Of a stretch of 64,000 bases of DNA, positions 17,823 through 59,931 are shown in pieces. The notes under the pieces were generated by a model, which saw only the letters and a program-made list of their open reading frames with translations, had not been told where the DNA came from and did not search any database. The DNA is from Thermoanaerobaculia bacterium. Its GTDB lineage: Bacteria > Acidobacteriota > Thermoanaerobaculia > UBA5066. Location: the NCBI GenBank assembly GCA_963816185.1, contig CAWFJJ010000024.1, positions 32,001-96,000 on the forward strand, given 5' to 3'. The position numbers and the translations under genes were made by a program. Numbering within the stretch: position 1 is the stretch's first letter; every line of letters begins with the position of its first letter.

Positions 17823-18824
17823 CTAGCTCTGCCATATCTCCTCGAGAGAGAGCGCCGACGCCTCGGCGTCGACGACGCCTTCGAGCGCGGCGAAGCGGGC
17901 GAACGACTCGTCGCCGTAGTTCGAGACCACGGCCTCGATGCCCCAGCCGCGCACCTTCACCTTGACCGAGTCGAATGCGGACAGCTCCTGCCCATACGCC
18001 GCGGCGTCCTCCGTCGCCTCGTTCCCGTAGCGCAGGCGCCGGAAGCGCGCCTTGAGCGTCTCGAGGTCCTCGTCGACGACGAGCCTGCCGCCCTTGAGGA
18101 TCCCGACGCGGTCGGCCATCTTCTCGACTCCCGCGAGGTCGTGCGACGTGAGGAGGACGGTCGTCCCCCGGTCGGCGAGCTCGCCCACGAGCTCGTCGAA
18201 GAACGCCGCGCGCGCCACGGCGTCGAGGCCGAGCGTCGGGTCGTCGAGGACGAGGAGGTCGGGCCAGGATGCGAGGGCGAGGGCCAGGGAAACGAGCGCC
18301 TTCTGGCCCTTCGAGAGGTTGCCATACGGAGCGGCGGCAGGCACGCCGAAGCGGGACAGGCGCGCCTCGACGGACTCCGCATCCCACGCGGGATAGACCT
18401 TCGCGCAGAACGCCGAGAGCTGGCGGGCGGTCATGGACGGCGGCGCGTCCGGGTCCTCGGGTACGATGCCGACCTTCGCCATCAGGCGCGCGCGGTTCTT
18501 CCAGACGTCCTCGCCGAAGAGCGCGCACGAGCCGGCTGTCGGCTTCTGCTGGCCGAGGAGGCAGCGCACGAGGGAGGATTTCCCGGCGCCGTTCCGACCG
18601 AGTAGGGCATAGACGGAGCCACGGGGAATGGAGAAAGAGATTTCTTCGAGAGTGGGCTTCGGGTTGCCGCCGTACCTCACGAGAAGACGACGAACCTCGA
18701 CGGCGGGCGCGGAAGATTTCTTCGAATGCGATTCCGCCGGGAAAGGCGCCGGCGCGCCCGAGCGACCCGCCGCGGCGGCCAGGTCCGCTGCCCGCGACGG
18801 TTCTGATCCGCGCATCGCGCTCAT
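17823..18824 (-). CDS. ABC transporter ATP-binding protein (YtrB-like); 3' end probably cut at the block junction
   Basis: GRNGAGKS, LSKGQK, LVLDDPT, TSHDL; ends abruptly at SLEEI-WQS. Confidence 0.85.
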   Translation of the reverse strand: MSAMRGSEPSRAADLAAAAGRSGAPAPFPAESHSKKSSAPAVEVRRLLVRYGGNPKPTLEEISFSIPRGSVYALLGRNGAGKSSLVRCLLGQQKPTAGSCALFGEDVWKNRARLMAKVGIVPEDPDAPPSMTARQLSAFCAKVYPAWDAESVEARLSRFGVPAAAPYGNLSKGQKALVSLALALASWPDLLVLDDPTLGLDAVARAAFFDELVGELADRGTTVLLTSHDLAGVEKMADRVGILKGGRLVVDEDLETLKARFRRLRYGNEATEDAAAYGQELSAFDSVKVKVRGWGIEAVVSNYGDESFARFAALEGVVDAEASALSLEEIWQS

Positions 18825-18848
18825 GCGGCAACTCCCCTGCTTTTCCTT

Positions 18849-19253
18849 CTAAGAATCTTCATTTCTCTTCTTTCTAAGAAATCCCAAACTGCGTTTCACG
18901 CGCTCCACCGCCTCATCACTGGGCGCGCCGATCGTGACGGCGAGCGACGCGTACCGCATCGCACCTCCTTCGAGCTCCTTTTCGCGCTCGCCGCGCGGGA
19001 GAGCCGGCGGCCTGTCGGCGACGAACGTCCCCTCCCCGCGCTTGACGGCGAGGACTCCCGAGTCCACGAGGCGCTGGTAGCCCTTCGCGACCGTCGCCGG
19101 GTTGATCGACAGGTCGCGCGCGAGGTCGCGCACGGACGGCATGGCCGAGCCAGGCTTCATCGCGCCGGACGCCACGAGCCGCCGGACGTTCTCCTCGATC
19201 TGCTTCCAGAGGGGAACGGCGTCGGAAGGATCGATGGAGAGGCTGCGGCTCAT
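18849..19253 (-). CDS. GntR-family regulator (YtrA type)
   Basis: PLWKQI, PSVRDLA..L.INPATVAKGY, RGEGTFV. Confidence 0.9.
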   Translation of the reverse strand: MSRSLSIDPSDAVPLWKQIEENVRRLVASGAMKPGSAMPSVRDLARDLSINPATVAKGYQRLVDSGVLAVKRGEGTFVADRPPALPRGEREKELEGGAMRYASLAVTIGAPSDEAVERVKRSLGFLRKKRNEDS

Positions 19254-19963
19254 ACGCGGACCTCCGCGTACGTGATCTCCCGCCGCTCGAGCACCCACGC
19301 GGCAAGAACAAGCGCAGCCGCGGTGACGAAGACGGTCACGAATAGCTCAGAGATGCCTACCGCCGGAGGAGAGCCCGAGGCCATGCCCCAGCCGGGGGCG
19401 AGGACGAACTGGAGACCGTCGCCCAACCGGATCCAAAAATCGTCGCGGTTGAAGAATCCGACCATGCGGGAGGTCTGAGCTGCAACCGAAGCGAGGCCCC
19501 ACACGGCGAGATCCGAGAGCCCGCTTCCGAGCGCGGAAAGGAACAGGAGCACCGCCGAAGTTCCCGCCGCCGCGAGGATCCGTTCAAGGAGCCGCGGACC
19601 GAGCGCATCCGCCTCGAACGAGCCGTGGCAGACCCGGAGGATCAGAACGACGGCCAGGAGCTGCGCGGCGGAGAGGACGCCTGCTGTCGCCGTGACGGAC
19701 GCCCACTTGCTTAGCGCATAGACCCAACGTTTGATTGGTCGCGTGAACACTAGAGCGAGAACGCCGCTCGAGATGTCGAGACCCAAGATGCCGTTCGCGA
19801 GTGTCACGGCGAGGAGCGGATGGAAGAAGGAGACGCTAGAGTTCGGCCGCGGGTCCACCAGGGCGATGGGGATCGGGAACAGGGCGAGGCCGAGCAGAGT
19901 TGCAACGCGGATGGGATTCGAGAGCCGCTCGCGCAGCGTGGCCGCGCAGATGTCGAGGTTCAT
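19250..19963 (-). CDS. ABC-2 type permease-like membrane protein
   Basis: Several hydrophobic segments, G.L.LVFTRPI.R....LSK; coupled to the flanking genes by 4-nt overlaps. Confidence 0.72.
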   Translation of the reverse strand: MNLDICAATLRERLSNPIRVATLLGLALFPIPIALVDPRPNSSVSFFHPLLAVTLANGILGLDISSGVLALVFTRPIKRWVYALSKWASVTATAGVLSAAQLLAVVLILRVCHGSFEADALGPRLLERILAAAGTSAVLLFLSALGSGLSDLAVWGLASVAAQTSRMVGFFNRDDFWIRLGDGLQFVLAPGWGMASGSPPAVGISELFVTVFVTAAALVLAAWVLERREITYAEVRV

Positions 19964-20709
19964 GCGACCGTTTCTCCGGCGCCCGCATCCTCGGGCTGGA
20001 AGAGGGACTCGAGCCGAACTCCCTCGGGAACGTCCGCGAGTCGCCCCGCGCGGAGGAAGAGGACGCGGTCCGAAACCCGCTCGACCTGTTCGAGCTGGTG
20101 CGAATTGAAGAGAATCGTCACGCCGTCGGCTTTAAGGCTCGCGAGGAGGCGGCGGACGAGGAGCACGCCGTGCGGGTCGACCCCTGACGTCGGCTCGTCG
20201 AGGAAGAGGAGACGCGGCCTTCCGACGAGCGCTTGCGCGAGCGCGAGGCGCTGGAGCATGCCCCGGGAATACGTTGAGATGCGTCGCCGCCGTGCCGACG
20301 GCTCGAGCTCCACGCGGTCGAACGTTTCGGCGACATCCGACTCCTGCGTCGCGCGAGGACGTCCCGCGAGGGCATGGTGGTAGGCCACGAAAGCCCGGCC
20401 GCTCATCCAGCGGTCGAAGGACAGGCGCTCGGGGACGTATCCGACGAGGCGGTTAACCTCCGGTGTGCCGGGCCCTCCTCCGAGGATCCGGATTCGCCCC
20501 TCGTCCGGGAAGAGAAGTCCGAGCAGGCATCCGAGAAGCGTCGTCTTCCCGGCGCCGTTCGGGCCAACGAGGCCGAGGACGATGCCGGGCTTCACTTCGA
20601 ACGACACGCCGGACAACGCGGGAACCGGCTTACCCGCATAGCGCTTCGTGAGGCCGGAGACGGCAATCGCGGGATCTGGAGCCGGTGCCGAATCAGTGTA
20701 TCGCAACAC
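19960..20709 (-). CDS. ABC transporter ATP-binding protein
   Basis: GPNGAGKTT, YSRGM, FLDEPTSG, NSHQL. Confidence 0.9.
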   Translation of the reverse strand: MLRYTDSAPAPDPAIAVSGLTKRYAGKPVPALSGVSFEVKPGIVLGLVGPNGAGKTTLLGCLLGLLFPDEGRIRILGGGPGTPEVNRLVGYVPERLSFDRWMSGRAFVAYHHALAGRPRATQESDVAETFDRVELEPSARRRRISTYSRGMLQRLALAQALVGRPRLLFLDEPTSGVDPHGVLLVRRLLASLKADGVTILFNSHQLEQVERVSDRVLFLRAGRLADVPEGVRLESLFQPEDAGAGETVA

Positions 20710-20767
20710 TGATACACTACGGACGCCGAGAGCCGTTTGTCAAGGATGCCGGAGAAAAGATCGATTC

Positions 20768-22009
20768 CTAGCCCGGGGCCCGCCCGGCCGCGAGCCGAGA
20801 TGCGAGGTCGTCCAGGTGCGACGCGCGCAGCCGCGCCTCGGCCTCGGAGATCGTCCCCGCCTGCACGAGTGCGGCGAGCGAGTCCTCCATCGTCATCATC
20901 CCGAAACGCTTTCCGAGCGTCAGCTCCGTGTGAATCTGGTGGAACGAGCCCCGGCGGATGTGGGCGCGGATGGGGTCGGTCGCGACGAGGATCTCCACGG
21001 CGGCCGCGCGGCCGGATCCGTCCTTCTTCGGGACGAGCTGCTGGCAGACGATGGCCGACAGTGCGAGCGAGAGCTGGTGCTTCACCTGCCCCTGCTGCTC
21101 GGCCGGGAAGATGTCCAGGATCCGGTTGATCGTCTGCGGGACGTCGTTCGTATGGAGCGTCGTGAGCACGAGGTGGCCGGTCTCGGCGGCCGTCACGGCG
21201 GCGCGCGTGGTCTCGAGATCCCGCATCTCGCCCACGAGAATCACGTCGGGGTCCTGGCGGAGCGCGGCGACGAGCGCCGAGGCGAAGTCCGGCACGTCGA
21301 CTCCCACCTCGACCTGCTCGACGAGCGATTTCGCATGGGTGTGCTCGTATTCGACGGGGTCTTCGATGGTCACGATGTGCCGCCTCTCCGTCCGGTTCAT
21401 GCGGTCCACGAGGGCCGCGAGGGTCGTCGTCTTGCCGGAGCCGGTCGCGCCCGTCACGAGGATGAGGCCGCGCGCGGCTTTCGTCAGGTCGTAGAGCATC
21501 TCCGGCAGACCGAGCTCGGAGAGAGAAGGGACGCGCTTGGGCAAAACTCGCAAGGCCGCCGCGACCCCCCGCCGCGTGCGGTGGAGGTTCACGCGGAAGC
21601 GGCCGAGGCCCGCGAGGTGGAGCGAGAGGTCCACGACGCCCGTCTCGTGATAACGGCGGCGCCGGTCGCCGGAAAGCGACGGCGAAAGGAGATCGAACAC
21701 CTCCTGCGCCGAGATCGACTCTCCTCCGCCCGCCCTTTCGAGAGAGCCGTGCATCCGCACGACCGGCGAAGCGCCGGGCACGAGGAGGAGATCCGTTGCG
21801 CCGCGGCGGACGGTCTCCGAGAGAAGAGCCACGAGGACGGGAGGGATCTCGTCCGCGCCCGCCGGTGAGATCTTCGCGGGCAGATCGAGCTCGGGCGCCG
21901 GCTCCTCGGGACGCACGAGCTCCAGCTCGGGCTCGGCGGCGCCGCGCCGGTCGGAACCGGCGCCCTGATTCAGCGACCGGATCAGCTTGTTCAGCTCGTC
22001 CGTATCCAC
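20768..22009 (-). CDS. pilT: PilT/PilU-family type IV pilus retraction ATPase
   Basis: TDLLL, RFRVN, GATGSGKTTTLA, TIEDPVE, ALRQDPDVILVGEMRD, AAETGHLV.TTLH. Confidence 0.88.
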   Translation of the reverse strand: MDTDELNKLIRSLNQGAGSDRRGAAEPELELVRPEEPAPELDLPAKISPAGADEIPPVLVALLSETVRRGATDLLLVPGASPVVRMHGSLERAGGGESISAQEVFDLLSPSLSGDRRRRYHETGVVDLSLHLAGLGRFRVNLHRTRRGVAAALRVLPKRVPSLSELGLPEMLYDLTKAARGLILVTGATGSGKTTTLAALVDRMNRTERRHIVTIEDPVEYEHTHAKSLVEQVEVGVDVPDFASALVAALRQDPDVILVGEMRDLETTRAAVTAAETGHLVLTTLHTNDVPQTINRILDIFPAEQQGQVKHQLSLALSAIVCQQLVPKKDGSGRAAAVEILVATDPIRAHIRRGSFHQIHTELTLGKRFGMMTMEDSLAALVQAGTISEAEARLRASHLDDLASRLAAGRAPG

Positions 22010-22046
22010 GGGTGAATTCTACGGACGTCCCGCGGCTCCCGCCTCG

Positions 22047-22886
22047 TCAGGAGCCGGTCTTTCGCCTGAGCTCGTCGAAGGCGAGGAGGTCGGACAGGAA
22101 TTTCGGGAGGGTCGCGAGCGGGAGCTGCGTGGCGCGGTCGGACTTCGCGTGTGCAGGATCGTCGTGGACCTCGAAGAAGTAGCCGTCCACGCCGACCGCC
22201 GCCGCCGCGCGGGCGAGGGCGGGCGCGTACTCGCGGGAGCCGCCCGTCTCGGTCCCGAGCCCGCCGGGGAGCTGGAGGGAGTGCGTCGCGTCGTAGACGA
22301 CGGGCACGCCGAGAGCGCGCATCATGGGAAGGCCGCGGAAATCCACGACCAGGTTGTGGTAGCCGAAAGTCGTCCCGCGCTCGGTGAGCGTCACGTTCGA
22401 GTTGCCCTTCGCCCGGCATTTCTCGACGATCTGCCTGCAGTCGTCCGGCGCGAGGAACTGACCCTTCTTCACGTTCAAGGCCCTCTTCGTCGCGGCGGCG
22501 GCTTCGATGAGATCCGTCTGCCGGCAGAGGAACGCCGGGATCTGGAGGACGTCGGCGACCTCCGCGGCGATCGCGCATTGCTCGGGCTCGTGGACGTCCG
22601 TCAGGATCGGCAGGTCGGTCTTTTCCTTCACCTCGGACAGGATCGAGAGGCCCCGCTCGATGCCGGGGCCGCGAAAAGAGGCGCCCGCGCTGCGGTTCGC
22701 CTTGTCGAACGAAGACTTGTAAACGAGCCGGTCGGCCGCGCCGCAGCCCTCGAAGACCTGCTTGATCGCCTTCGCCATCTTCAAAGCGTGCGCACGTGAC
22801 TCAATCACGCACGGGCCCGCGAAGAAGACGGGCCGGCAGCGATCCCCGACGGAGAGGTGAGGCGTGATCGAGACGAAGACCTTCAC
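22047..22886 (-). CDS. kdsA: KDO 8-phosphate synthase
   Basis: AGPCVIES, KSSFDKANRS, LQIPAFLCRQT, KKGQF, ERG..FGY, DATHS, EVH. Confidence 0.95.
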   Translation of the reverse strand: MKVFVSITPHLSVGDRCRPVFFAGPCVIESRAHALKMAKAIKQVFEGCGAADRLVYKSSFDKANRSAGASFRGPGIERGLSILSEVKEKTDLPILTDVHEPEQCAIAAEVADVLQIPAFLCRQTDLIEAAAATKRALNVKKGQFLAPDDCRQIVEKCRAKGNSNVTLTERGTTFGYHNLVVDFRGLPMMRALGVPVVYDATHSLQLPGGLGTETGGSREYAPALARAAAAVGVDGYFFEVHDDPAHAKSDRATQLPLATLPKFLSDLLAFDELRRKTGS

Positions 22887-22924
22887 CGCGTCGATGTTAC
22901 AGAATGTGGGGACCGGGAGGTCCG

Positions 22925-23413
22925 ATGGCGATCCGCATTCTCGTGACGGGCGGGACATTCGACAAGGAGTACGACGAGCTGACGGGCCGTCTCTTCTTCA
23001 AGGACACCCACATCCAGGAAATGCTCCGGCTCGGCCGCTGCCGGGTGCCGGTGGCCGTCGAGACCCTGATGATGATCGACAGCCTCGAAATGACGTCGGC
23101 CGACCGCGAGACGATCGTGCGCCGCTGCCGCGAGGCCTCCGAGAGCTGGATCGTCATCACGCACGGCACCGACACGATGGTCGAGACCGCCGCGCCTCTC
23201 GCCGCCGCCGAGACGGGGAAGACGATCATTTTGACCGGCGCGATGGTGCCGTGGGCGTTCGGAAGCTCCGACGGGCTCTTCAACCTCGGAAGCGCGCTTT
23301 CCTTCGTCCAGTCGCTCCCGGCCGGCGTCTACGTCGCGATGAACGGCCGCTGTTTTGCGTGGAACAACGTCCGGAAAGACCGCGTCTCGGGGGTCTTCGA
23401 GGCCATCCGCTGA
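22925..23413 (+). CDS. Stand-alone asparaginase N-terminal domain protein
   Basis: TGGTFDK, DSLEM, HGTDTM, LTGAM.P, FNLG. Confidence 0.85.
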   Translation: MAIRILVTGGTFDKEYDELTGRLFFKDTHIQEMLRLGRCRVPVAVETLMMIDSLEMTSADRETIVRRCREASESWIVITHGTDTMVETAAPLAAAETGKTIILTGAMVPWAFGSSDGLFNLGSALSFVQSLPAGVYVAMNGRCFAWNNVRKDRVSGVFEAIR

Positions 23414-23490
23414 GCGTGAGCGGCGCCACGTTTCCGCGACGACGCGGCGCGAGTTTTGCGTCGAAAACCCCGAGAGGTGAAAAAGTTACA

Positions 23491-24081: not shown

Positions 24082-24116
24082 CAGCCGGGTGCCGCATCCG
24101 GCCTCAGAATGGGGCC

Positions 24117-25787: not shown

Positions 25788-25789
25788 GC

Positions 25790-26629: not shown

Positions 26630-26632
26630 CGG

Positions 26633-27040
26633 CTACTTTTTCAGGAGCAGATTGAAGTCCGCACGATAGAACGTGCGGCCCTGTCCGTCGCGCCGCGTCG
26701 GAATGACGAAGAGCGGGAAGCGGCCCATCTTCTCCTGCTCGACGGTATACGTGCCCTCGGCGAGGCGCTCGCCTCCGGGCGCGACGAACGTGAGCGAGAA
26801 CTGGTGCGTTCCGTTCGAAGAAGGTTTCTCGTCGTACGCCTCGAGGACGACGTCGATCGAGCCCCGTGAATCGGCCGTCTGGACGTGAAACGTCCGGCCG
26901 ACGTATTGCGCGAAGTTGCGGACCGGCGTGATCGAGCCCATCGCGCCCACGGCCTTCGTGGCCGCCGACAGCGGACGGACCGCCGCGCCGACGACACCGG
27001 TCACGACCGTGAAGAGGAATTTCTTGCGGGTGATTTTCAT
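26633..27040 (-). CDS. DUF6916-like protein with a Tat-like leader
   Basis: MKITRKKFL + hydrophobic stretch; F..YVG..F, FSLTF, L..GTY...G...LFVIP, Y.ADFN; GGAGG upstream. Confidence 0.7.
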   Translation of the reverse strand: MKITRKKFLFTVVTGVVGAAVRPLSAATKAVGAMGSITPVRNFAQYVGRTFHVQTADSRGSIDVVLEAYDEKPSSNGTHQFSLTFVAPGGERLAEGTYTVEQEKMGRFPLFVIPTRRDGQGRTFYRADFNLLLKK

Positions 27041-27079
27041 CGAAGACCTCCGGGGACGGTTTGTGCCACGATACGGCGC

Positions 27080-28384: not shown

Positions 28385-28393
28385 GGCGTCTCC

Positions 28394-28903: not shown

Positions 28904-28913
28904 CGCGTGCCTC

Positions 28914-29417: not shown

Positions 29418-29434
29418 CGCTGTTTCTCCTCGTG

Positions 29435-38102: not shown

Positions 38103-40375
38103 AGGGAGCCGTCGCGGCGACGATCACGGGACCCGCCGAGATCGTTCCGTGCGGCGCGCGCGAGCGGCCGCACGACGCTTCTCGAGCACGAGGTCTACGC
38201 GCTGCTCGGCGCGGCGGGCTTCGACGTGCCGCGACACGTCTTCTGGAACGGCGCGCCGGAGCTGGTGCCGACGGAGGTTGAAGATTTCTTGGAAGGGTTG
38301 AGAGGGGACGACGTCGTCCTCAAGATCGTCTCGCCGGATCTCGCCCATAAGTCCGACGTCGGCGGATTCTCATTTTCAAAGAAATCTCCTGCGTCGGTCA
38401 TCGCTGCGGCGAGGACGACGTGGGAAGACGTCTCCCGCCGAGCGCCCGCAGCCCAGCGCCTCGGGATCCTCGTCGTCGAGAAGCTCGTTCCCGCCTCCGG
38501 GAGGTCCCGGCAGCCGAGGCGCTCGTCTCGTTCAAGCAGGACGCGGCCTTCGGCCCCGTCCTCCTCTTCGGCCTCGGCGGCGTCCTGACCGAGTGGTACG
38601 GCGCGAATGGCGCCTGGTGCGACGACGGCGATCCTGCAGCCCGGGAGAGGTGAAGCAGGGCCTCGAGGCCGCGAGTCGAAAAGAGGCCGGCGCTGAAGAT
38701 CTTCTTTGAAAGGAACAGGGCGCAAGCGCAGGCGCCGCTCGTGCTCGACGAGGTGGCGGCCAAGCTCGAATCACTTTCTAAGAATCTCTCTCCCTATTCT
38801 CCCGAGAATTCTCTTGGGTTACCGACTCTCGAAGAGCTCGAGGTCAACCCGGTCCTTCTGACGGCGGACGGGCGCTGGGTCGTGGCCGACGGGAAGGCTT
38901 CGTTCTCGGACCGCAGGGCCGTTCCCGTTCGGAGGCCTCTCGAGAAGATCGAGAAGCTTCTCGCGCCGCGAAGCGCCGTGGTCTTCGGCGCGTCCGCCCG
39001 CGAATCGAATCCAGGCCGGATCATCCTCAACAATCTGAAAGCCTCCGAGACCGTCGTATACGGCCATTTGCATGCGGTTCACCCGCGGGCGGACACGATC
39101 GATGGCGTGCCCTGCGTGCGCTCCGCCTCCGACCTGCCGTCGCCCGTGGACCTCGCGGTCGTGGCGATCCCCGCCGCCGGCGCGCGGGACGCCATCCGGG
39201 ATCTCTGCGCGGGCGATCTCGCGCGCGCGATCATCCTCATTCCGGGAGGGTTCTCGGAGACGGGAAACCGCGGGCTCGAGGACGACATCCGTGCGGCCCT
39301 CGCGTCCTCGCGAGCTCTTCCCTCGGGAGGCCCCGTTCTCGTGGGCGGCAACTGCCTGGGCGTCGTCTCCAAGCACGCCTACAACACGTTCTTCCTTCCG
39401 CAGTACAAGCTGCCGTTCCACGACGCGCCGGGCGACCGCCTCGTCGCGGTGAGTCAAAGCGGCGCGTACCTCGTGTCGCTCACGAGCAACCTGGACGGCA
39501 TCATCTTTCCGCGCGCGTCGATCTCTTACGGCAATCAGATCGACCTGACCGCGGCGGATTTTCTCGAGTACTTCGAGAGGGATCCGTCCGTGCGCGTCCT
39601 CGCGTTCTACGTCGAGGGCTTCGCGCCCCTGGATGGCGCGCGTTTCGCAGCGATCGCGCGGCGCGTCGTGGCGTCGGGCCGGCACGTCCTCGTCTACAAG
39701 GCCGGCCGAACGGCGCTCGGCGCGATGGCCGCGCGGAGCCATACGGCGGCTCTCGCCGGCGACTGGGAGACAGCGCGGGCGCTCCTCGAAGGCGCGGGCG
39801 CGATCGTCGCGGTCACCCTCGACATGTTCGAGGACTACGTGAAGATCTTCACGATGCTCGCGGATCGCCTGCCGTCGGGGCGGCGGCTCGCGGTCCTCTC
39901 GAACGCGGGCTTCGAGTGCGGGGCGGTCCTGGACCGGCTCTACGCCCTGACGCCAGCCGTGCTCGCCCCTGCGACGAGAGCAGGTCTTCGGGCCTGCCTC
40001 CCGGCGATCGCCCACGCCGACAATCCCGTCGATGCCACGCCGATGGCGGGTACCGCCGACTTCGTCGCCGCGGCGAAAGCGCTCCTCGCGGATCCTGGAG
40101 TGGACGCGCTCCTCGTCTCGCCGATCCCGGTCACTCCGGCGCTCGACGACCTCGCGCCCGACCTTTCGGGCGCGCACGCGGAGAACATCTTCTCGCCGGG
40201 CTCGCTCGCGCAGGAGCTCCTGCGTCTTTTTCGCGAGACCGCAAAGCCGCTCGTCGTGAACGTCGACTCCGGGCGCCTGTACGACGATTTCGTCGGCGTT
40301 CTTCAGCGCGGCGGAATCCCCGTCTACCGGAAGATCGACCGGGCTTCCCGGGCCCTCTCCGCGCTCTGCGCCTGA
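38099..40375 (+). CDS. ADP-forming acyl-CoA synthetase (acetate-CoA ligase family), ATP-grasp first then CoA-binding domains; indels at about 38150-38620
   Basis: LLEHEVY.LL, VLKIVSPD..HKSDVGG, D..FGPV..FG.GG, ELEVNP, FGAS, GGFSE, GGNCLG, SQSGA, SHTAALAG, NAG, NPVD. Confidence 0.88.
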
Positions 40376-42301: not shown

Positions 42302-43291
42302 CTACACCTCCCGTACGGCCAAGAAGTTGCTGGTTCGGTTCGTGTCAGGCTGTTTGAGTTTCTTCTCATATGCGGCGGCCCCTGTTGCGGCCGCCGATAG
42401 AAGGAATTTCTTTCCCGGCTGTCCGACGTCAAGGGCGCTCTTTGCGCGCCGCGCAGCGGTCTTTGACCCTTGACTTCGGGCAGCCGGGGAATATCCGATT
42501 CTCTTCTTGCCTTCCTCTTTCTCTCTCTTTCTAAGAATCTCTTCCACTCTTCGAGCGTCCTCGATCGTGTCGACGCCGATGGAGTCGCTCGCGGCATCCA
42601 GCACGGCCATCGCCATCCCCGCCGCGAGCGCGCGGAGCTGCTCGAGGCTCTCGGCGCGCTCGAGCGGATGGGGCGGCAGGCTCGTCCAGCGCCGAAGCGC
42701 GTCCTTGCGGTAGCCGTAGAGGCCGAGGTGCTTGAGCGTCGGGAGGGAAGGCTCGGGTCTCCGGCGGTAGGGAAGCGCCGCACGCGAAAAGTAGAGGGCT
42801 CGCCCGTCGTCGCCGCGCACGACCTTGACGTTGTTCGGATTCGCGATCTCGGCCGGATCGTCGATGGCGAGAGCGACCGTCGCGAGCGGAAACTCGGGAT
42901 GCTCGAGCAGGAATCCCGCCACGCGGTCGAGGTTCTCGGGATCCATGAGCGGCTCGTCGCCTTGCACGTTCAGGACGACGTCCACGTCGAGGTCCCTCAC
43001 GGCCGCGAAGACCCGATCCGTTCCGGACGGAAGCGCCGGGTCCGTCAGGACCGCCCGTCCCCCCGCCGTTTCGACCGTGCGGGCGATCCGCGCGTCGTCG
43101 GTCGCCACGAGCACGAGCGAGACGCGCTTCGCCTGAAGGGCCCGCTCGAGAACCCGTACGACCATGGGGGTTCCGGCGATCGGATGGAGAGGTTTCCCCG
43201 GGAAGCGCTCCGCCCGATAGCGGGAGGGGATGACGGCGACGACGTGAAGCGGGGAGGGGGTCGCCAGCCGGGGCACGTTCGATCTTAACAT
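42302..43291 (-). CDS. kdsB: CMP-KDO synthetase; reads about 65 codons past the usual end
   Basis: [58 protein letters not shown]. Confidence 0.92.
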
Positions 43292-43821: not shown

Positions 43822-44062
43822 TCGCTCTCCTGACCGTTCCTGGGTTGTGGGAGCTGATCTGTGACCCACGATATGTTGGGGAGAGCTTAGAACCTGAAAT
43901 CTCGGAAATCAAGTGAGAATCCAGAAAAAAGAAGGATTCCTAGAAGGAGTGCCTTATTAAATTAGGGCGAGACCTGAACACTGCACAGCAACCTAGCAGG
44001 CATTAGACGGCGCTGGCCGAAAGCCTATTTTCATTCGAAGACATTAAATTATTTGTTCTTAA

Positions 44063-45640: not shown

Positions 45641-46390
45641 TCACTCCGAGAGGATCTTCGTGCCTTCCGGCGGGACGAGCGCGAAGTCCGAGTCAGGGCG
45701 CTTCGGCCCGGACATCTTCTGCGTGAACGTAAACGTCGTGCGGTTGCCCCCGGCATCCACGAGAATCAGCCTCTTCACCTCGCCCGAGGCTGCCGCGACG
45801 AGCGTGACGGACTTCGGATCCCCGCCGGCGCGAGGGGTCAGCGTGAGCTCGGTCAGGCCGGCGTCCCGTGCGGCGGCGCGCGCCGCATAGCGCGAGAGGA
45901 GCGAGTCGGTCGACTCCAGAAACACGATCGGCAGGCGCGCGATCTCCGCGGGGCTCAGCGTGCGGACGACGAGCTGCCGGTCCGCCGCGACGAACTGGCG
46001 GCCGGCCCTGCCGTCGAACGTGAACACTTTCCCTTCGGGTCCGTCGTAGTCGAAACGCACGCGGTCCGGTGACTGGAGGATCAGTCGCCCGGTCTCCGGC
46101 GCGGTTTCCGCGAAACCTGCCGGCGCGTACGTCTGCACGAACGTGCAGCTCACGGAGGGGGAGGACGAATAAGCTGTTCGGATGCTCGTGAGAAGCGCTC
46201 GCGCGTCGAGCGACGCGACAGCCGGCGGCGCTGGCGTCGCGGCCGGCTTCGCCGGCCGTGCCTCGAAGGGAAAGAAGAATAGGAGGAAAAAAACGAAGAC
46301 TGCGGCGCGCTGCGCGCGCCGTGCTTCGAAAGGAAGAAGGACCGGCGATTCGGCTTGGCGCCGGCAGCGCCTGAGGGCGGGTGCGTTCAC
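45641..46390 (-). CDS. lolA: Outer-membrane lipoprotein carrier LolA-like protein
   Basis: F.QTY, ETG.L..Q.P..VRFDY..P..K....DG, D..GNRT.F.F, F...PPEG. Confidence 0.75.
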   Translation of the reverse strand: MNAPALRRCRRQAESPVLLPFEARRAQRAAVFVFFLLFFFPFEARPAKPAATPAPPAVASLDARALLTSIRTAYSSSPSVSCTFVQTYAPAGFAETAPETGRLILQSPDRVRFDYDGPEGKVFTFDGRAGRQFVAADRQLVVRTLSPAEIARLPIVFLESTDSLLSRYAARAAARDAGLTELTLTPRAGGDPKSVTLVAAASGEVKRLILVDAGGNRTTFTFTQKMSGPKRPDSDFALVPPEGTKILSE

Positions 46391-46427
46391 TTTCTAAGAA
46401 TCTTCTCTTTCTTTCTCTCGTCTCTTC

Positions 46428-48579: not shown

Positions 48580-48637
48580 CGCGCCGCGATTGTACGGGTC
48601 GCGGCGTAGACTCCGCTTACGTACGGAGTTGGACGGG

Positions 48638-53163: not shown

Positions 53164-53242
53164 GGATTCTACGGGCGCCGCGCTCGCAATGTCGGATCAG
53201 GGAAGCGTCTCGGGGCTCGGAGTCGAGGCGGCCGGAAAGGGT

Positions 53243-54337
53243 TCACCTCTTTCTTTCGCCTGCGACGGCGGGCTTCGCGGGTTTCGGCTCGGGCGCGGCC
53301 GGCCCGGCAGCCGGTGCCGGGGCACCGAGGACGTCGCCCGTGGGGAGCCCGAGATTCGCCCGGATCTTTCGCTCGACTTCGGCCGCCACATCCGGGTTCT
53401 CGCGGAAAAACTGCTTCGTGTTCTCCCGGCCCTGGCCGATCCGCAGGTCGCCGTAGCTGAACCACGCGCCGGACTTCTCGAGGATCTTCATCTCGACGCC
53501 GATGTCGACCAGCTCGCCGGTCTTCGAGATCCCTTCGCCGTACCCGATGTCGAACTCGGCGATGCGGAACGGGGGCGCAACCTTGTTCTTGACGACCTTG
53601 ACTTTCGTGCGGCTGCCGACGACGACCTCGCCGTCCTTGATCGCGTTGATGCGCCGGATGTCGATGCGCACGGACGAATAGAACTTCAGGGCGCGGCCGC
53701 CGGTCGTCGTCTCGGGATTCCCGAACATGACGCCGATCTTCTCGCGGATCTGGTTGATGAAGATGAGCGTGGTCTTCGACTTCGAGACGACGGCCGTGAG
53801 TTTGCGGAGCGCCTGCGACATGAGGCGGGCCTGCAGGCCCATCGACGCGTCGCCCATCTCGCCCTCGAGCTCGGCTTTCGGAACGAGCGCGGCGACGGAA
53901 TCGATGACGACGACGTCGATCGCGGCCGAGCGGACGAGCGCCTCGGCGATCTCGAGGGCCTGCTCGCCGGAGTCGGGTTGCGACACCATGAGGTTGTCGA
54001 CGTCGACGCCGAGCTTCCGGGCGTAATCGGGGTCGAGCGCGTGCTCGGCGTCGATGAACGCCGCGAGGCCGCCGTGCTTCTGCGCTTCCGCGATGATGTG
54101 GAGGGTCAGGGTGGTCTTGCCCGAGGACTCGGGCCCGAAGACTTCGATGACGCGGCCCCGGGGGATGCCCCCGATCCCGAGCGCGGCGTCCACGCCAATC
54201 GAGCCGCTGGAGATGGATTGGATGACCTCGTGCGGCTTGTCGCCGAGGCGGACGAGCGCGCCCTTCCCGAACTGCTTGTCGATCTGCTGGACGGCCTGCT
54301 CGAGCGCCTTGAGCTTTTCCTTGTTCACTTCGACCAT
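53243..54337 (-). CDS. recA: Recombinase RecA
   Basis: [58 protein letters not shown]; GAAGGAG RBS. Confidence 0.98.
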
Positions 54338-54491
54338 TTGGTCTCCTTCAAGCGTTGCGATTATAGGTATCGGGGGAGGAAGAGATTTCTGCGAATACGG
54401 CGCACGTCGCACCGGCGCTGTTCACCCTTCTAAGAAAATCCGGAGATTCGGCGAATCGGCCTACGATGGCGTCGCCGCGCGGAAGGAACGA

Positions 54492-55046
54492 ATGGAAGGT
54501 AGTCCCCGGGCTTCCGAAAATCAAGCGACTCCCGGCTCTCTTCGCCCCTGGCCCGAGGTTTTCGCGGCGTCGCGCGTGACGACGCTCGTCGCGACCTGGT
54601 TCGGAACGGGTTTCCTTCCGATAGCGCCGGGGACGTGGGGCAGCCTCGTCGCGATTCTCATCGCGCATCTCGTGGTGCTCTTCTCGGGCGCTTGGGGCCT
54701 CGGGGGCTTCGCGCTCGGGGTCGCCGTGATCGGCGTTCACGCCTCGGGCGAGACGGCACGCCTGCGCGGCGTCGGAGATCCGCCGGAGATCGTCGTCGAC
54801 GAAGTCGCGGGCCAGTCCATCGCGCTCCTACCGGTGTATGCGCTCGTGCCGGCCGGAGCGACGCTCCTCCGGATCGGCGCTGCGCTCTCGGCGTTCTTTC
54901 TCTTTCGTGTCCTGGACGTCTGGAAGCCGGGCCCCATCGGCGCGCTCGAGCGCCTGCCGCGCGGCTGGGGAATCATGGCGGACGACGTCCTCGCCGGAGC
55001 GGTCGCCGGGGTGTTCGTTCTCGCGGCCCTTCTCGTGACCCGATGA
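54492..55046 (+). CDS. pgpA: Phosphatidylglycerophosphatase A
   Basis: APGTWGS, DP.EIVVDEVAG, F.LFR.LD.WKP.PI, GIMADDV.AG. Confidence 0.92.
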   Translation: MEGSPRASENQATPGSLRPWPEVFAASRVTTLVATWFGTGFLPIAPGTWGSLVAILIAHLVVLFSGAWGLGGFALGVAVIGVHASGETARLRGVGDPPEIVVDEVAGQSIALLPVYALVPAGATLLRIGAALSAFFLFRVLDVWKPGPIGALERLPRGWGIMADDVLAGAVAGVFVLAALLVTR

Positions 55047-55927
55047 TCGAGAAAGCGCTGCGCGGATTTCGCGCGGTCGTGCGCGAGAACGTTCCGCTCT
55101 CCGGGCGGACGACGCTGAAGATCGGCGGGCCTGCGCGGTTTCTCGTGGAAGTCCATGATGAGAACGCGCTTGCCGCGCTCCTCGGCGCGAGCCGGAAGGA
55201 AGGACTTCCCGTCCTCGCGCTCGGGAAGGGGTCGAACATGCTCGTGCCGGATTCAGGCTTCCCCGGGGTCGTCTTCACGCTCGCCGGCGACTTTCTGGCA
55301 ACACGGATCGAGCCGCCGGACGTCGTCGCGGGCGGCGGCGTATCGCTCATGTCGCTTGCCGTCGCGACGCAGAAGGCCGGCTTGTCCGGACTCGAGAATC
55401 TTTCGGGCATCCCGTCGTCGCTCGGCGGAGCCGTGCGGATCAACGCGGGGTCGTACGGTTCCGAGATCTTCGAGGTTCTCGTCGCGGTCGACCTCGTCTC
55501 GGCTCAGGGCGTGCGCCGGACGCTGCCCGCCGCCGAAATCCCGCATGGCTACCGCTGGACCGCCCTCTCGGAAACGGACGACGTCGTCTCAGGCTCCGCG
55601 CTGCGCCTCGTGTCGAAACCGGCGGAGCAAATTGCAGCGCGTATCGCCGAGGTGACCGCGAAGAGAAGGGGGGCCCTTCCGAAAAAGCCGAACGCGGGGT
55701 CCATCTTCAAGAATCCGCCCGGACTCTTTGCGGGCAAGCTCCTCGAGGAGTGCGGTCTCAAGGGGCGGCGCGTCGGAGGCGCGGAGATCTCTCCCGTTCA
55801 TGCGAACGTAATCGTCAACCTGGGCGGCGCAACAGCGAAAGACGTTGAGGCGCTGATGAACGAGATGAAGACGGCCGTACACGAGAAGTTCGGCATCCAC
55901 CTGGTTCCTGAGATTAAAGTGCTCTGA
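55043..55927 (+). CDS. murB: UDP-N-acetylmuramate dehydrogenase
   Basis: TTLKIGGPA, G.GSN.L, GIP.SLGGA..NAG, NAGSIFKNP, HAN.IVN, L.PE. Confidence 0.93.
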   Translation: MIEKALRGFRAVVRENVPLSGRTTLKIGGPARFLVEVHDENALAALLGASRKEGLPVLALGKGSNMLVPDSGFPGVVFTLAGDFLATRIEPPDVVAGGGVSLMSLAVATQKAGLSGLENLSGIPSSLGGAVRINAGSYGSEIFEVLVAVDLVSAQGVRRTLPAAEIPHGYRWTALSETDDVVSGSALRLVSKPAEQIAARIAEVTAKRRGALPKKPNAGSIFKNPPGLFAGKLLEECGLKGRRVGGAEISPVHANVIVNLGGATAKDVEALMNEMKTAVHEKFGIHLVPEIKVL

Positions 55928-55938
55928 AGGACACATCC

Positions 55939-57084
55939 ATGAAAAGACATCTCACCTTCACCTTCCTCCTCCTCATCGGCGCGGCGACGTTCTGGGCCTG
56001 CGGAAAGAAAGAGCTTCCTGACGTGACCGTCGGCGTGATCGCCGAGCTGAGCGGCGACATTCCGGCCGTCGGCGCCTCGTGCAAGAACGCGGCTGAAATG
56101 GCCGTGGCCGACATCAACGAAGACGGCGTGAAGGTCGCCGGCAAGGTCCATCGACTGCGGCTCATGATCGAGGACAGCATGGGCACCGCGAGCGAAGCCG
56201 TCGAGGCCGCGAAGCGCCTCGTGAAGGAAGACCAGGTCCTGGCCATCGTGGGTCCGAACGCCAGTCTCGGCGCCGTCCCCGCCTCGCAGGTGGCCGAGGA
56301 TGCGAAGGTTCCCATGATCTCGCCTTGGTCCACGAACCCACGAACGACCGCGGGAAAGAGATGGGTCTTTCGGGCCTGCTTCACCGACGCCTTCGAGGGA
56401 CACGTTCTCGCGAAGTTCGCCACAGGCTACGTGCGCGCCACGAAGGCGGCCGTTCTCTACGACCCCGGCTCTGAAGCGCCGAAGAGCCAGGCCGAGCTCT
56501 TCAAGAAGCAGTTCGAGGAGGAGGGCGGCAAGGTCGTTGCTTTCGAGACGTACAAGACCGGAGACAAGGACTTCACGGCGCAGCTTGGCCGGATCAAAGC
56601 CGCTTCTCCAGACCTCATCTTCCTGCCCAGCTATTACAACGAGGTCCCGCTGCAGCTCCAGCAGGCGCACAAGCTCGGGATCAAGGTCGCTTTCCTGGGC
56701 AGTGACAACTGGAGCAGCCCGGAGCTCGTCAAGCTGAGCGGACCCGACGCAGAGGGCGCGACGTACTGCAACCACTATGCGCCGGAAGCGCGCGTGGACG
56801 CCGTGGCGAAGTTCGTAACGCGGTACAGGAACAAGTACGGGCAGACGCCGGACGACGTGGCAGCCTTGACGTACGACTCCTTCATGCTCCTCGCGAAGGC
56901 TCTCTCGGGCGCGACGAAGGTGGATCGCGAGGCGATCCGCGACTCTCTCGCGAGGGTCCGCGAGTTCCAAGGCGTCACCGGCAAGATGACGTTCAAGGAA
57001 GGCTCGGGGGACCCGGTGAAGAGCGCCGTGATGATGAAGGTCGAAGGCGGCAAGCCGACCTTCATCACCAACATCGATCCATGA
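55939..57084 (+). CDS. Branched-chain amino acid ABC substrate-binding lipoprotein (LivK-like), orphan
   Basis: Lipobox-like WAC; AV.DIN..G, STNP..T, VFRACFTD, DFTAQL, AALTYD, GVTG...F. Confidence 0.88.
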   Translation: MKRHLTFTFLLLIGAATFWACGKKELPDVTVGVIAELSGDIPAVGASCKNAAEMAVADINEDGVKVAGKVHRLRLMIEDSMGTASEAVEAAKRLVKEDQVLAIVGPNASLGAVPASQVAEDAKVPMISPWSTNPRTTAGKRWVFRACFTDAFEGHVLAKFATGYVRATKAAVLYDPGSEAPKSQAELFKKQFEEEGGKVVAFETYKTGDKDFTAQLGRIKAASPDLIFLPSYYNEVPLQLQQAHKLGIKVAFLGSDNWSSPELVKLSGPDAEGATYCNHYAPEARVDAVAKFVTRYRNKYGQTPDDVAALTYDSFMLLAKALSGATKVDREAIRDSLARVREFQGVTGKMTFKEGSGDPVKSAVMMKVEGGKPTFITNIDP

Positions 57085-57094
57085 GGAGGGGGGT

Positions 57095-57125
57095 CCGGGG
57101 GGAACCATAGGATGGTTCCCCCCGG
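57095..57125. terminator. Perfect 14-bp hairpin between convergent genes
   Basis: CCGGGGGGAACCAT-AGG-ATGGTTCCCCCCGG, with a T-run a few nt downstream on the + strand. Confidence 0.6.
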
Positions 57126-57146
57126 CTATGTTTTTCTCTGCTGCCG

Positions 57147-58646
57147 CTAGGGCTGTACCGCCGCAGTGAAAACCTCCTCCATCGTGAGTTTGGTCCGGCA
57201 GCCCATTGCCGGAGCCTGGTTGTTCACGGCTGTCCGTCCAGATCGGGTGCGCGGTGCCGCCGAACGAGACGAGCCCCTCGTAGTCGCCCTGCTGGTTCCC
57301 GTAGTCGATCGCCGCGCAGGGAAAGACGCCCGCGCAGTCGTGCTCGTTGGACCTGGCCGTCGTCACCCGCGTGTTGGGGCCGAACGAAACGCCGCCGTCC
57401 GTGCGACCGCGCGAGGTAGACGTCCGTTTCGTAGCGGAAACCCGTCGTGTCGTTGCGCGTGTCGTAGAAGGAGACGTCGACGCCGCCCGTCATCGGATCC
57501 ACGGACAGCCAGTGGTTGAACCGGTCGATCGAACCGTGCACATCCGTCACGCTCGCCGGAGCCGACCAGCTCTTCCCCCCGTCGTCGGAGAAGGTCAGGA
57601 AGATGTCCGTGTTGCCCGCAGGCGTCAGATCCATGTAGGAGCAGTACAGGCGGCCTCGATTCGGGCCTGTCGAGCGGTCCGCGTCGCAGGCCGGATAGAC
57701 GAGAGCGCCGCGGAAAGACTCGGCCGGAATCGCGATGTCGAACGGAATCCTCTTTTTCGCGACCACGCCCTGCCGGCCCCACGTCACGCCGCCGTCGGTG
57801 GAACGGTTGAACGCGATCGTGTTCGCGGCGAAGTCGTTCCAGGCGACGAAGAGGTCGCCGTTCGGGCCCACGAAGGGCACGGCTCCGATTGCGCGCCCGG
57901 GGCCTTTCGGGTCGTCGGCGCGGTTCACCGTGAACGTCGCGCCCTGGTCGGTCGAGCGGCCGACGCGGATCCCACCGCTCACCGACCCGCCGCTCGCGGC
58001 GTCCCAGGCGACGTAGACGTTGTCCTTGAAGGGGCTGGCGGCGTTCGTGTCCGCCGTGATCATGGGTTTGTCGTTGAAATGGTTCTGGCCGCCGTCGAAG
58101 GAGAAGAGGGACGCGGACGGGTACGTTGCCCCGCCGTCCGTAGACCGCGCGACCATCATCGCGGTGCCGTTGATGCCATTGCCCCTGCTGAAGTACACGA
58201 CGATGTAGCTGTAGAAGACGTTCCCCTGTGTGTCGAAGGCGAGGCTCGGGTCAGAACCGAAGTCGATGCCGTTCGTCCCGATGGCCGGCGGGAGCGGCAG
58301 ATCCACACCGCCCCACGTCAGGCCCCCGTCCTTCGAGGAATAGCCGCGCATCGGCAGGCGGAACGATCTCGTTCGAGCCGCCCGCGAGCATGCTCGAGTC
58401 GGTCGGGTTGAGGGTGACGTACGTCTCGCTCTGTGGCCCACACTCGTTCGAGACGTCCACGTTTCCGCCGACCGTCAGGGACGTCGGACCACCTCCCGCG
58501 CTCGGTCCGTTGTGGAGGATGTACTGATACTTGTCCCACCACAGCGGGTTCTTGGGGTCTTTCTGGGCGGCTGCCGGGAAAGAGGCGGCCAGCGAAAGGG
58601 CGGCGACGGACGCGAGGACAACGATCTTCCGGATGTACGTTCTCAT
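57147..58646 (-). CDS. Exported BNR/Asp-box repeat (sialidase-like) protein, several indels
   Basis: Signal peptide; S.DGG.TW repeats (SKDGGLTW, STDGGATY, STDGGVTW, SDDGGKSW), SDP, DKP, FYDTR, GDYEG, WTDSR. Confidence 0.8.
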
Positions 58647-58773
58647 GTCGTGCCTCCGGCCGGGCAGGCCGCGGAGAGCCGTCCCGGGCCGGGCGGGATT
58701 TTATTCCGACAGTTTCGCAATGTTGAAGTGAGTCTCGGTCGCGAGGGCCCCCGGCCCCGTACAATCTCTCTCG

Positions 58774-59931
58774 ATGTCGAATGCCGGCCTCCGCGCGCTC
58801 ATCCTCGCCGGAGGCAGCGGCACGCGGCTTTGGCCGCGTTCCACGAACGAACGGCCGAAGCCCTTTCTCGCCCTGACGGGCGGCGAGTCGCTCCTTCGAG
58901 AGACGTTCCGGCGCGCGACCGCGCTCGCCGGGGCCGGGAACGTCTTCGTCTCGGGACGCGCGGCGCACGCGCCGCTGCTTGCCGCCGAGCTGCCCGAGGT
59001 GCACCGGTCGCGCTTCGTTCTCGAGCCGGTGCGGCGCAACACCGCGCCCGCGATCGCCCTCTCGGCGCTTGCCGCTTCGGAGGACGCTCCGGACACCGTC
59101 CTCGCCGTCCTGCCGTCCGATCAGGCCGTGCGCGACGAAGCGGCGTTTCTCGCCGCCCTCCGCTCGGCGGCGGAGGCGGCCCGGACGCAAGACGCGTTCG
59201 TCACGCTCGGGATCCCGCCCACGCGGCCCGAGACCGGATTCGGGTACATGGAAGTCGAAGAACAAGAAGAGATTTCTGCTGAAGACGAAGAAGAGAAAGA
59301 GGAGATTTCTCCGAATGGGAAGAGGGGAAACGAGAAGGGGACCGGGGAATCGAAGATTTCTGAGAATGGAAACAGGGAAGGGAGAGCCGCGGCCTTGCGC
59401 GTGGTGCGCTTCGTGGAAAAGCCGACGCTTGCGCGAGCCCAGGAGTTTCTAGCCTCCGGCCGCTTCTTCTGGAACGCCGGCATCTTCGTGTTCCGGACCT
59501 CATACCTTTTCGAAGAAATGGAGAGAGCCTGTCCCGACATCCTGAACATCGCACGCCGCGCGTATGCGGCTCGAAAAGAGGGGGAATTCACAGAAATCTT
59601 CTCTTCGTCCCCTTCCGTGTCCTTCGACGTCGCGGTCATGGAGAAGGCGAGGCGGGTAATCACCGTCCCGTGCGCGTGCGGGTGGAGCGACCTGGGCTCG
59701 TGGGAAGCCGTTTTCGAATTCCGGGGCGGCGCTCCCGGCACAAACGTGCTCGAGGGACCCGCGGCTGCGGTCGAGGGATCCGGCAACCTCGTTCTGGCCG
59801 AAGGACGGCCGGTGCGCGTCGTCGGCCTTTCCGACGTCGCGGTCGTGGACTCCAAGGACGGCGTTCTCGTCATGCGCCGCGGCGCGTCCGACGCGCTCCG
59901 GAGGAGCGTGGAGGAGGGCCTGTCGCGATGA
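58774..59931 (+). CDS. manC: Mannose-1-phosphate guanylyltransferase with a charged in-frame insertion
   Basis: ILAGGSGTRLWP, EP..RNTAPAI, ETGFGYM, FVEKP, WNAGIF, SFD.AVME, WSDLGSW. Confidence 0.9.
   Translation: MSNAGLRALILAGGSGTRLWPRSTNERPKPFLALTGGESLLRETFRRATALAGAGNVFVSGRAAHAPLLAAELPEVHRSRFVLEPVRRNTAPAIALSALAASEDAPDTVLAVLPSDQAVRDEAAFLAALRSAAEAARTQDAFVTLGIPPTRPETGFGYMEVEEQEEISAEDEEEKEEISPNGKRGNEKGTGESKISENGNREGRAAALRVVRFVEKPTLARAQEFLASGRFFWNAGIFVFRTSYLFEEMERACPDILNIARRAYAARKEGEFTEIFSSSPSVSFDVAVMEKARRVITVPCACGWSDLGSWEAVFEFRGGAPGTNVLEGPAAAVEGSGNLVLAEGRPVRVVGLSDVAVVDSKDGVLVMRRGASDALRRSVEEGLSR

Follow-up and report, generated by a model that had tools for sequence, protein, structure and literature searches.

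A 64,000-nucleotide stretch of the genome of a GC-rich soil bacterium of the Thermoanaerobaculia (GenBank assembly GCA_963816185.1, contig CAWFJJ010000024.1, here C24, positions 32001-96000; hereafter the window) carries repeated copies of an AT-rich word, each copy spanning ~25 bp and termed here an arm. Throughout the genome, arms face one another in convergent pairs, were written in place into genes and spacers alike, and are conserved among the species of a single genus, with no pairing-type covariation between partners. We tentatively read these pairs, with somewhat less than even confidence, as genus-specific half-sites, each of which may be recognized by its own sequence on duplex DNA by a putative genus-specific factor. 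The initial annotation of the window, made from its letters, had already noticed a recurrent motif; that observation was confirmed, and its interpretation was partly supported.

An oriented word recurs throughout the genome

Seven exact copies of AGATTTCTNNGAA and four of AGATTCTTAGAA had been placed in the window by the initial annotation, and a recount recovered each of them at the same coordinate and on the same strand, versus a mean of 0.00 and a maximum of 0 in 100 dinucleotide-preserving shuffles. In the whole assembly (5,088,052 bases in 30 contigs, ~67% GC, 94.9% complete), the two sequences occurred 135 and 22 times, respectively. An unbiased survey of 8-mers against an order-3 Markov model ranked other portions of the word far higher: TCTAAGAA and TTCTTAGA were found 369 times against 19.9 expected, and CTAAGAAA 271 times against 9.8. 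TTC-N3-GAA, initially taken as the shared core, had to be replaced, as the 8-mer AGATTTCT (221 occurrences against 95.7 expected, rank 448) proved to be a mere outer shoulder of a stronger word whose best-conserved core is TTCTWAGAA followed by GG, with the purine tract outside.

Alignment of the 337 exact TTCTWAGAA cores in the genome yielded an oriented consensus comprising approximately 30 nt of purine-rich sequence, AGAT, TTCTTAGAA, GG and a purine-rich inner flank. The G at position +10 was present in 92% of the aligned cores, and the purine fraction on the AGAT strand ranged from 0.70 to 0.92 at positions -20 to -3, in agreement with the initial description of AT-rich patches that are purine-rich on that strand. 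A 28-column scoring matrix derived from these 337 cores gave 660 matches above 20 in the genome versus 102 in the reversed genome, and 479 versus 36 above 24. The genome thus holds ~660 arms at 405 loci in 5.09 Mb, a density of ~1 arm per 7.7 kb. The same matrix sorted the ten near variants that had been listed in the window: those at 18872 (28.5), 54428 (26.4), 38697 (25.3) and 18638 (15.9) stood as strong, those at 43934 (12.2), 27103 (10.5) and 59270 (10.0) were degenerate but recognizable, and those at 27032 (4.8), 50121 (3.8) and 54444 (1.3) were unconvincing.

Three further features of the sequence were recorded beside the consensus. The inner flank of the arm (GAAGGTGA) resembles a Shine-Dalgarno sequence; small open reading frames (ORFs) begun by it were considered and rejected, as inspection by eye found start codons after only some copies and frames that run on. 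The 3′ end of the 16S gene together with the first spacer bases (GATCACCTCCTTTCTAAGGGATCTC; contig C1, L015:3040-3075) resembles the facing arm TCACC-TTCTAAG-AAATCTC at 17 of 19 positions with one 4-nt gap, a likeness noticed post hoc that reaches a matrix score of only 12.2. An excess of A8/T8 in the k-mer table, unrelated to the arm signal, stems from a single 1028-nt poly-T run (contig C10:1147-2240), which is directly followed by a poly-A run of at least 65 nt and is almost certainly an assembly artefact.

Arms stand in convergent pairs

Where a match on the + strand was followed by one on the - strand, 176 of 208 such neighbours lay within 300 bp of each other, all of them 51-300 bp apart with a peak at 82-84 bp, whereas only 3 of 203 neighbours in the opposite order did so. 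Facing partners 40-350 bp away were found for 429 of 568 strong arms (76%), against a chance level of ~3% by our own arithmetic from the density of matrix matches. In three other species, the matches listed included 16 convergent and 0 divergent close pairs, as judged by eye. The initial annotation had treated the copies as single sites; the copies are real, and the unit that it missed is the convergent pair.

Genes were called with a crude home-made finder (3932 genes, 84% of bases), which overlooked, among others, the window's interrupted ATP-grasp region. On these calls, 77 of the 176 pairs lie within one predicted gene, 15 partially so and 84 between genes. The intergenic pairs occupy 60 co-directional, 15 divergent and 9 convergent spacers, next to genomic baselines of 72%, 14% and 14%, and many of them take up the entire spacer between co-directional genes. 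In 4 of 19 tight co-directional spacers the upstream ORF stops at the TAG of the core, as does the GntR ORF in the window. Intrinsic or bidirectional terminators were rejected as an identity for the pairs, given that the 84 intergenic pairs follow the baseline orientation, with 15 in divergent spacers, and that 77 pairs are genic. Split genes or bypass elements were likewise set aside, since the 19 tight spacers part different genes rather than halves of one.

The DNA between partners follows no common sequence. Interiors of the 80-87 bp spacing class (35 pairs) are GC-rich and visibly unrelated, and an all-versus-all comparison of 268 interiors linked, in the best 40 of 247 rows, paralogues or duplicates, apart from two exact matches of 16-17 bp. 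Among the paralogous interiors are those of a 16-pair class in Ser/Thr kinase genes, with a spacing of 101 bp. Genic pairs bracket native, conserved protein sequence. In approximately 16 paralogous Ser/Thr kinases, two facing arms occupy identical positions on either side of RFEREAKLLA..NHPNIA and read PEEFFEGEE ... SFEEI (for example C23:2635, C23:5304, C6:41511 and C24:608263-620204). At the trpD-trpC junction (C24:274118-274318, outside the window), one arm lies directly 5′ of the trpC start codon and the facing arm encodes an insertion rich in Ser and Leu that immediately precedes the conserved AEIK...SPS motif, such that the first ~60 residues of TrpC lie between the two.

Along the genome, loci are clustered (coefficient of variation 1.44 for 405 loci), which rules out regular spacing along the chromosome, and arms are missing from some 50-kb bins. 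Pair spacing showed no helical phasing: no peak appeared near 10.5 bp, and the best amplitude, 0.142 at 25 bp, stayed below the 95% null value of 0.151. Unpaired arms exhibited no orientation, strand or replichore bias, with 49 + and 48 - arms under positive GC skew and 17 + and 25 - arms under negative skew.

Within genes, the constraint sits on the DNA word

Within-gene shuffling of synonymous codons (20 shuffles) left the enrichment in coding sequence intact. AGATTTCTNNGAA occurred 71 times versus 2.05 ± 1.5, TTCTWAGAA 150 times versus 2.95, and matrix matches above 20 numbered 323 versus 16.9; overall, coding arms stood 20-50-fold above the shuffled genes. The 150 genic cores among the 337 exact ones are spread over all four stop-free combinations of frame and strand (48, 43, 38 and 21), and the remaining 187 fall between genes or at their edges, though spacers make up only 16% of the genome. 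Arms impose codons that are rare in this genome, namely TTA (0.3 per 1000), AGA (2.6), ATT (3.3) and TCT (3.6), and 202 genes bear them. Together with the synonymous and non-synonymous recoding described below, the use of all stop-free frames and the excess over codon shuffles support a constraint on the DNA word rather than on the protein, as the initial annotation had proposed.

Arms arose in place and are kept or lost as pairs

To a 1.6-Mb portion of a sister-genus genome (G074) that lacks the word, we aligned 63 orthologues from the 202 arm-bearing genes (at least 50% identity and at least 60% coverage). Patches proved to be both recoded and inserted: 49 of 86 in-gene arms aligned without a gap or with only a short one, and the other 37 coincided with an insertion of at least 5 amino acids in the present genome. 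Inserted residues are Glu/Lys-rich before an arm and Ser-rich after the facing arm. For 52 cores that could be aligned codon for codon, the GC fraction was 0.39 here versus 0.67 in the sister genus; 108 of 416 codons differed synonymously and 240 of 416 non-synonymously. In two genes (g1129 and g3631), a DFLE peptide common to both genera is encoded by AT-rich arm codons here and by GC-rich codons in the sister genus. Together, these comparisons show that the arms originated in place and not by transposition.

Comparison within the genus showed that partner arms come and go jointly from species to species. In an acyl-CoA synthetase-like gene of the window, both arms of pair 1 were present in 14 of 16 species and neither in 2; for pair 2 in the same gene (left core within 2 mismatches, right core within 3), both were present in 15 of 16 and neither in 1. 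The AT content at the arms of this gene is 62-67%, versus 29% in the rest of its alignment. The manC arm keeps its position in 8 species of the genus (7 besides this one), within an insertion of varying length. In the recA-murB spacer, with loci aligned in query orientation, the arm on the murB side was kept in 7 of 7 and that on the recA side in 3 of 7.

The word is confined to one genus

The word is restricted to one Thermoanaerobaculia genus and is held across at least 19 of its species. All 18 of the other species searched within the genus carried the 13-mer ATTTCTTAGAAGG, at 21-110 copies each (reversed control, 0); none of 12 genomes from two other families of the order did. An 11-mer of the word reached 75-201 occurrences per genome in 5 of 5 genomes of the genus, where controls gave 6-11, and never exceeded two per genome in 66 others of the class, two further genera of the same family among them. 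No comparable AT-rich word stood out in three outgroups (1.6, 0.4 and 0.4 Mb); in comparison, 0.4 Mb of the present genome gave 51 occurrences versus 1.7 (z ~30). Viral carriage was considered and rejected: a 14-mer had matches at 115 loci or more, each a single match on unrelated contigs without pairs, which we took as chance occurrences in AT-rich phage DNA.

The initial worry that the patches might be assembly artefacts was dispelled by the presence of the word in all of these other species and by contigs assembled from other public runs, in which the patches showed 0 differences (run X2 over window positions 59212-59464, run X3 over 54193-54471).

Sequence identity versus pairing of the arms

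The alternative that survives best, although we consider it unlikely, is that the arms pair in RNA or single-stranded DNA, where a long AU-rich stem closing a variable loop would be the functional object, either as an mRNA or operon processing or stability element or as a hairpin read by a structure-specific enzyme. Owing to the convergent order, transcription of either strand yields the same succession of purine tract, arm, interior, arm and pyrimidine tract, and in 40 pairs with a spacing of 78-90 bp the arms form the outer stem of long hairpins (mean z -3.4). The joint gain and loss of arms and the many intergenic pairs that fill a whole co-directional spacer also fit such an element.

The complementarity of the arms is nevertheless automatic, because both match one consensus. 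No compensatory changes between partners were detected: at the most variable position, 27 of 114 variants were mirrored versus 28.2 expected, and the other positions displayed no clear excess, the largest gap being 28 versus 18.2 expected at +19. Gapped duplex energies of the inner flanks, -10.1 for true partners versus -9.8 for swapped ones (p = 0.19), gave no pair-specific complementarity. Those of the outer tracts were -13.7 for true versus -12.9 for swapped partners (p = 0.02), but random genomic 25-mers pair better (-15.2). Moreover, genic arms held no excess of G·U wobble-tolerated transitions on the transcribed strand (27:170 versus 24:165, p = 0.88). A plain stem would not need a single fixed word across at least 18 species, and pairs in divergent spacers occur at the baseline rate. 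On balance, the data speak for two duplex-DNA half-sites that are each read independently, with a selected stem as the less probable alternative. Invertons were also tried and rejected, as partners lack excess identity at variable positions and no strand-switch joint was found at pairs in contigs, which drop rare forms.

A putative reader of paired half-sites

Each arm consists of the outer purine tract, AGAT-TTCTTAGAA-GG and the purine-rich inner flank; if the arms are half-sites, a reader would engage two of them head-to-head as a two-fold symmetric dimer or tetramer. The facing arms, 50-300 bp and most often 82-84 bp apart, bracket DNA of any sequence, including conserved coding segments. 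Arms were created in place by point substitutions, often to very rare codons, together with short low-complexity insertions, and would then be maintained either by per-site selection or by a conversion- or uptake-type drive favouring the word. Confinement of the word to one genus implies a reader that is itself lineage-specific. The earlier suggestion of a protein-binding or genome-architecture code stood as far as a lineage-specific DNA code is concerned; the protein nature of the reader, its action on duplex DNA and the outcome of its binding are what we infer.

Several points weigh against this proposal. No binder was identified, hence there is no direct sign of a protein reader. Spacing is without the 10.5-bp periodicity that a rigid looping or bridging complex might have given. 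The arms are complementary by construction, with the long hairpins noted above, and the outer tracts have a marginal own-partner advantage. Both the strand-symmetry and the covariation tests used a matrix-defined sample, with genes from the crude finder. Finally, the proposal names no benefit to offset the rare codons and low-complexity inserts borne by some 200 genes.

A more far-reaching version, possible but distinctly more doubtful, is a genus-wide "bracket code", in which a two-fold symmetric genus-specific factor would bind head-to-head half-sites 50-300 bp apart at some 400 loci, among them recA-adjacent, trp, manC and kinase genes, the half-sites having been driven in by directed substitution against GC and codon bias. 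If true, it would represent a new class of genome-wide paired signal, possibly the first uptake or self-recognition system outside Proteobacteria to require two facing sites, or else a new kind of nucleoid or repair landmark. Over-represented words tolerated in genes have each led to machinery, namely uptake receptors, RecBCD, FtsK, Noc, SlmA and MatP; to our knowledge, none of the described word systems operates through facing pairs. The present word forces very rare codons and low-complexity insertions into its host genes, and its reader, once found, could disclose a new uptake or self-recognition system in Acidobacteriota, a dominant soil phylum of which very little has been cultured, or a novel means to mark segments of the chromosome. 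In practical terms, the word is a clean marker that serves binning and the recognition of foreign DNA within the genus, and the recoded patches account for odd low-complexity inserts in its proteins.

Uptake signals, mutational by-products and mobile elements

A special case of the half-site proposal, which we regard as quite unlikely, takes a competence receptor as the reader: the word would be a DNA uptake signal preferred by the natural-transformation machinery and spread by point mutation with biased uptake and recombination. Like the uptake signal sequences (USS) of Pasteurellaceae and the DNA uptake sequences (DUS) of Neisseriaceae, the word is lineage-specific, occupies both strands and several frames by recoding at peptide-compatible places, and is kept at orthologous sites. 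It is also absent where the DNA looks foreign (the low-GC block described below, with some 50-kb bins lacking arms as well), and it favours neither strand nor replichore. The genome encodes ComEC and DprA, and one sequence was read as a ComEA-like helix-hairpin-helix protein; ComEC and DprA, however, also occur in 10-11 of 14 control genomes and therefore do not discriminate. Known uptake signals run at roughly 1 per kb and are mostly single sites, although inverted pairs also occur among USS and DUS. In contrast, the density here is about ten-fold lower, arms are flanked by long purine or pyrimidine tracts, and their near-obligate convergent pairing, within genes as well, has no role in an uptake model. 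The group is uncultured, and an uptake preference for the word would hold by analogy only; we know of no described uptake signal in Acidobacteriota.

Very unlikely, in our view, is a functionless by-product, in which near-matches are turned into the word by a repair or mutation bias that is specific to the genus and directed by sequence, in the manner of very-short-patch repair. Such a bias would fit the origin of arms by substitution at near-matches in genes and spacers alike, the lack of positional logic relative to genes and the clustering of loci. Single-site conversion, however, accounts neither for the 176 convergent versus 3 divergent close neighbours nor for partners that are present or absent together, nor for the insertions and the purine tracts beside the arms.

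The remaining candidate, a decayed miniature mobile element whose terminal inverted repeats would be the pairs and whose interiors have diverged (akin to miniature inverted-repeat transposable elements, MITEs, or to REPINs), is the most improbable: the inverted convergent arms, the minimum spacing of ~50 bp, the sharp 82-84 bp class in spacers and the 37 of 86 in-gene arms that coincide with insertions would suit it, but interiors are unrelated save for the two short matches among the best rows outside paralogous or duplicated loci, pairs bracket conserved coding segments that cannot be inserts, 49 of 86 arms lack an insertion, no longer arm-bounded element with a shared gene was seen among 19 wide pairs, and arm conservation is far above that of a decaying selfish element. 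Furthermore, the Y1 transposase of REPIN systems (RAYT, the REP-associated tyrosine transposase; PF01797) had 0 matches in this 94.9%-complete genome, in a search that was positive in 6 of 14 control genomes. An autonomous parent element was rejected as well: judged from coordinates only, the 19 wide pairs, with arms 300-6000 bp apart, have no enclosed gene in common.

Relation to other known systems

Uptake signals come closest in how the word is spread, and REPINs in layout; membership of either family was rejected on tests of defining features. With repetitive extragenic palindromic (REP) sequences and REPIN-RAYT systems, the pairs share two short, inverted, conserved sequences around a spacer of tens of bases, hundreds of copies and the capacity to form hairpins. 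They differ in that no RAYT gene was found, that spacers are unrelated rather than merely less conserved, that about half of the arms are genic (150 of 337 cores, 77 of 176 pairs) and that they originated by substitution in place.

Chromosome-organizing and related sites (NBS of Noc, SBS of SlmA, matS of MatP, parS of ParB, Chi and KOPS, the FtsK-orienting polar sequences) resemble the arms as short, frame-independent words with a partly palindromic core that are tolerated in genes. Here, in contrast, there are hundreds of loci rather than tens, an asymmetric site in facing pairs, and no orientation bias relative to GC skew. Profile counts across the family gave no evidence of a genus-specific extra ParB_N copy: genomes of the genus have 2-4 such genes each, and 16 of 17 family genomes of other genera have 2-3 (0 found in G104), counts that do not give specificity. 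The systems named as analogues in the initial annotation thus do not extend to the word as memberships, given the missing replichore and strand bias, the lack of an evident extra ParB in the genus, and a density and pairing unlike those of uptake sequences. Rickettsia palindromic elements and in-frame MITEs share the repeat-derived low-complexity segments in conserved proteins (manC and the linker of the ComEA-like protein), but those are whole-element insertions with conserved interiors, whereas here the majority of arms consist of host codons that were recoded, and native protein sequence lies between the two arms.

The view of the word as lineage-specific and without a match to any named system was borne out by its restriction to the genus, by the RAYT result and by two further searches. 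Rfam families at gathering score gave 0 matches in the window; literature on the 9-mer contained, among the matches listed, only eukaryotic, viral or primer contexts and nothing relevant, and none was found joining Thermoanaerobaculia with an inverted repeat.

Arms and neighbouring genes in the window

The arms of the window are compiled in Table 1. The host-gene labels of the initial annotation were upheld by Pfam domains (ABC_tran, GntR, CoA-ligase/ATP-grasp_5, CTP_transf_3 for the kdsB-like gene and NTP_transferase/ManC).

Table 1 Arms and arm pairs in the window (positions in window coordinates; scores from the 28-column matrix)
Feature	Position	Strand	Score	Context
Weak arm, F orientation	18638..18661	+	15.9	Inside ABC-ATPase ORF 17823-18824(-) (ABC_tran), antisense to the ORF
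Arm (F)	18714..18737	+	16.5	Exact AGATTTCTTCGAA; 5′ end of ABC-ATPase ORF; faces the arms at 18836-18884
Strong arm	18836..18859	-	27.8	Core TAG is the stop codon of GntR ORF 18849-19298(-)
Strong arm	18861..18884	-	28.5	C-terminal tail of GntR ORF, read GFLRKKRNEDS
Pair 1, left arm	38282..38305	+	26.3	ATP-grasp_5 of ADP-forming acyl-CoA synthetase-like gene, read EDFLEGL
Pair 1, right arm	38364..38387	-	22.0	97 bp from left arm; conserved VVLKIVSPDLAHKSDVGG segment enclosed
Pair 2, left arm	38698..38721	+	25.3	Spacing 82
Pair 2, right arm	38765..38788	-	27.8	Read LSKNLS
Strong arm	42518..42541	-	29.6	Tail of kdsB-like gene (CTP_transf_3); no partner above 6
Degenerate convergent spacer pair	43933..44046 (43933-43956 +, 44023-44046 -)		12.2, 17.3	Spacing 105
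Strong arm	46381..46404	-	27.5	Start of LolA-like gene (LolA domain); decayed partner at ~46272-46340, score 6.6
Short convergent pair	54383..54440 (left 54383-54395, right 54417-54440)		left at most 6, right 26.4	Fills the divergent spacer between recA and a murB-like gene (RecA, MurB domains); left arm an exact match to the initially described pattern
Three tandem F-type arms (59270 weak, 59303, 59354)	59266..59377	+	10.0, 21.5, 24.2	manC
Two degenerate facing arms	59498..59599 (59498-59521, read LFEEM; 59587-59599)	-	11.0	manC; exact AGATTTCTGTGAA on -

The ATP-grasp part of the acyl-CoA synthetase-like gene (38226-38740) shifts frame at ~38480-38640, and the conserved peptide continues in another frame, which reflects either a frameshift error or a pseudogene.

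Upstream of recA, a canonical TATAAT box and an AAGGAG ribosome-binding site (54352-54372) are conserved across species. Given these ordinary promoter and Shine-Dalgarno signals, the organism uses standard signals, and the arms are no substitutes for them. A promoter reading of the arms was rejected, as the TATAAT and AAGGAG of recA lie outside the arm and the distance from arm to start is not fixed.

Positions 1-17835, in which the initial annotation had spotted no copy, have a GC content of 57-64%, versus 63-72% elsewhere in the window, and hold 1 matrix match above 10, versus 20 in the rest. This block is probably DNA acquired after the spread of the word.

The tandem arms of manC lie in a low-complexity insertion of roughly 40 amino acids, where the sister genus is gapped (g2797). 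In the purine tract of this insertion (59269), the contig of a further run (X1) carries an extra AGA, a 3-base change in length; purine tracts differ in length between strains in a microsatellite-like manner.

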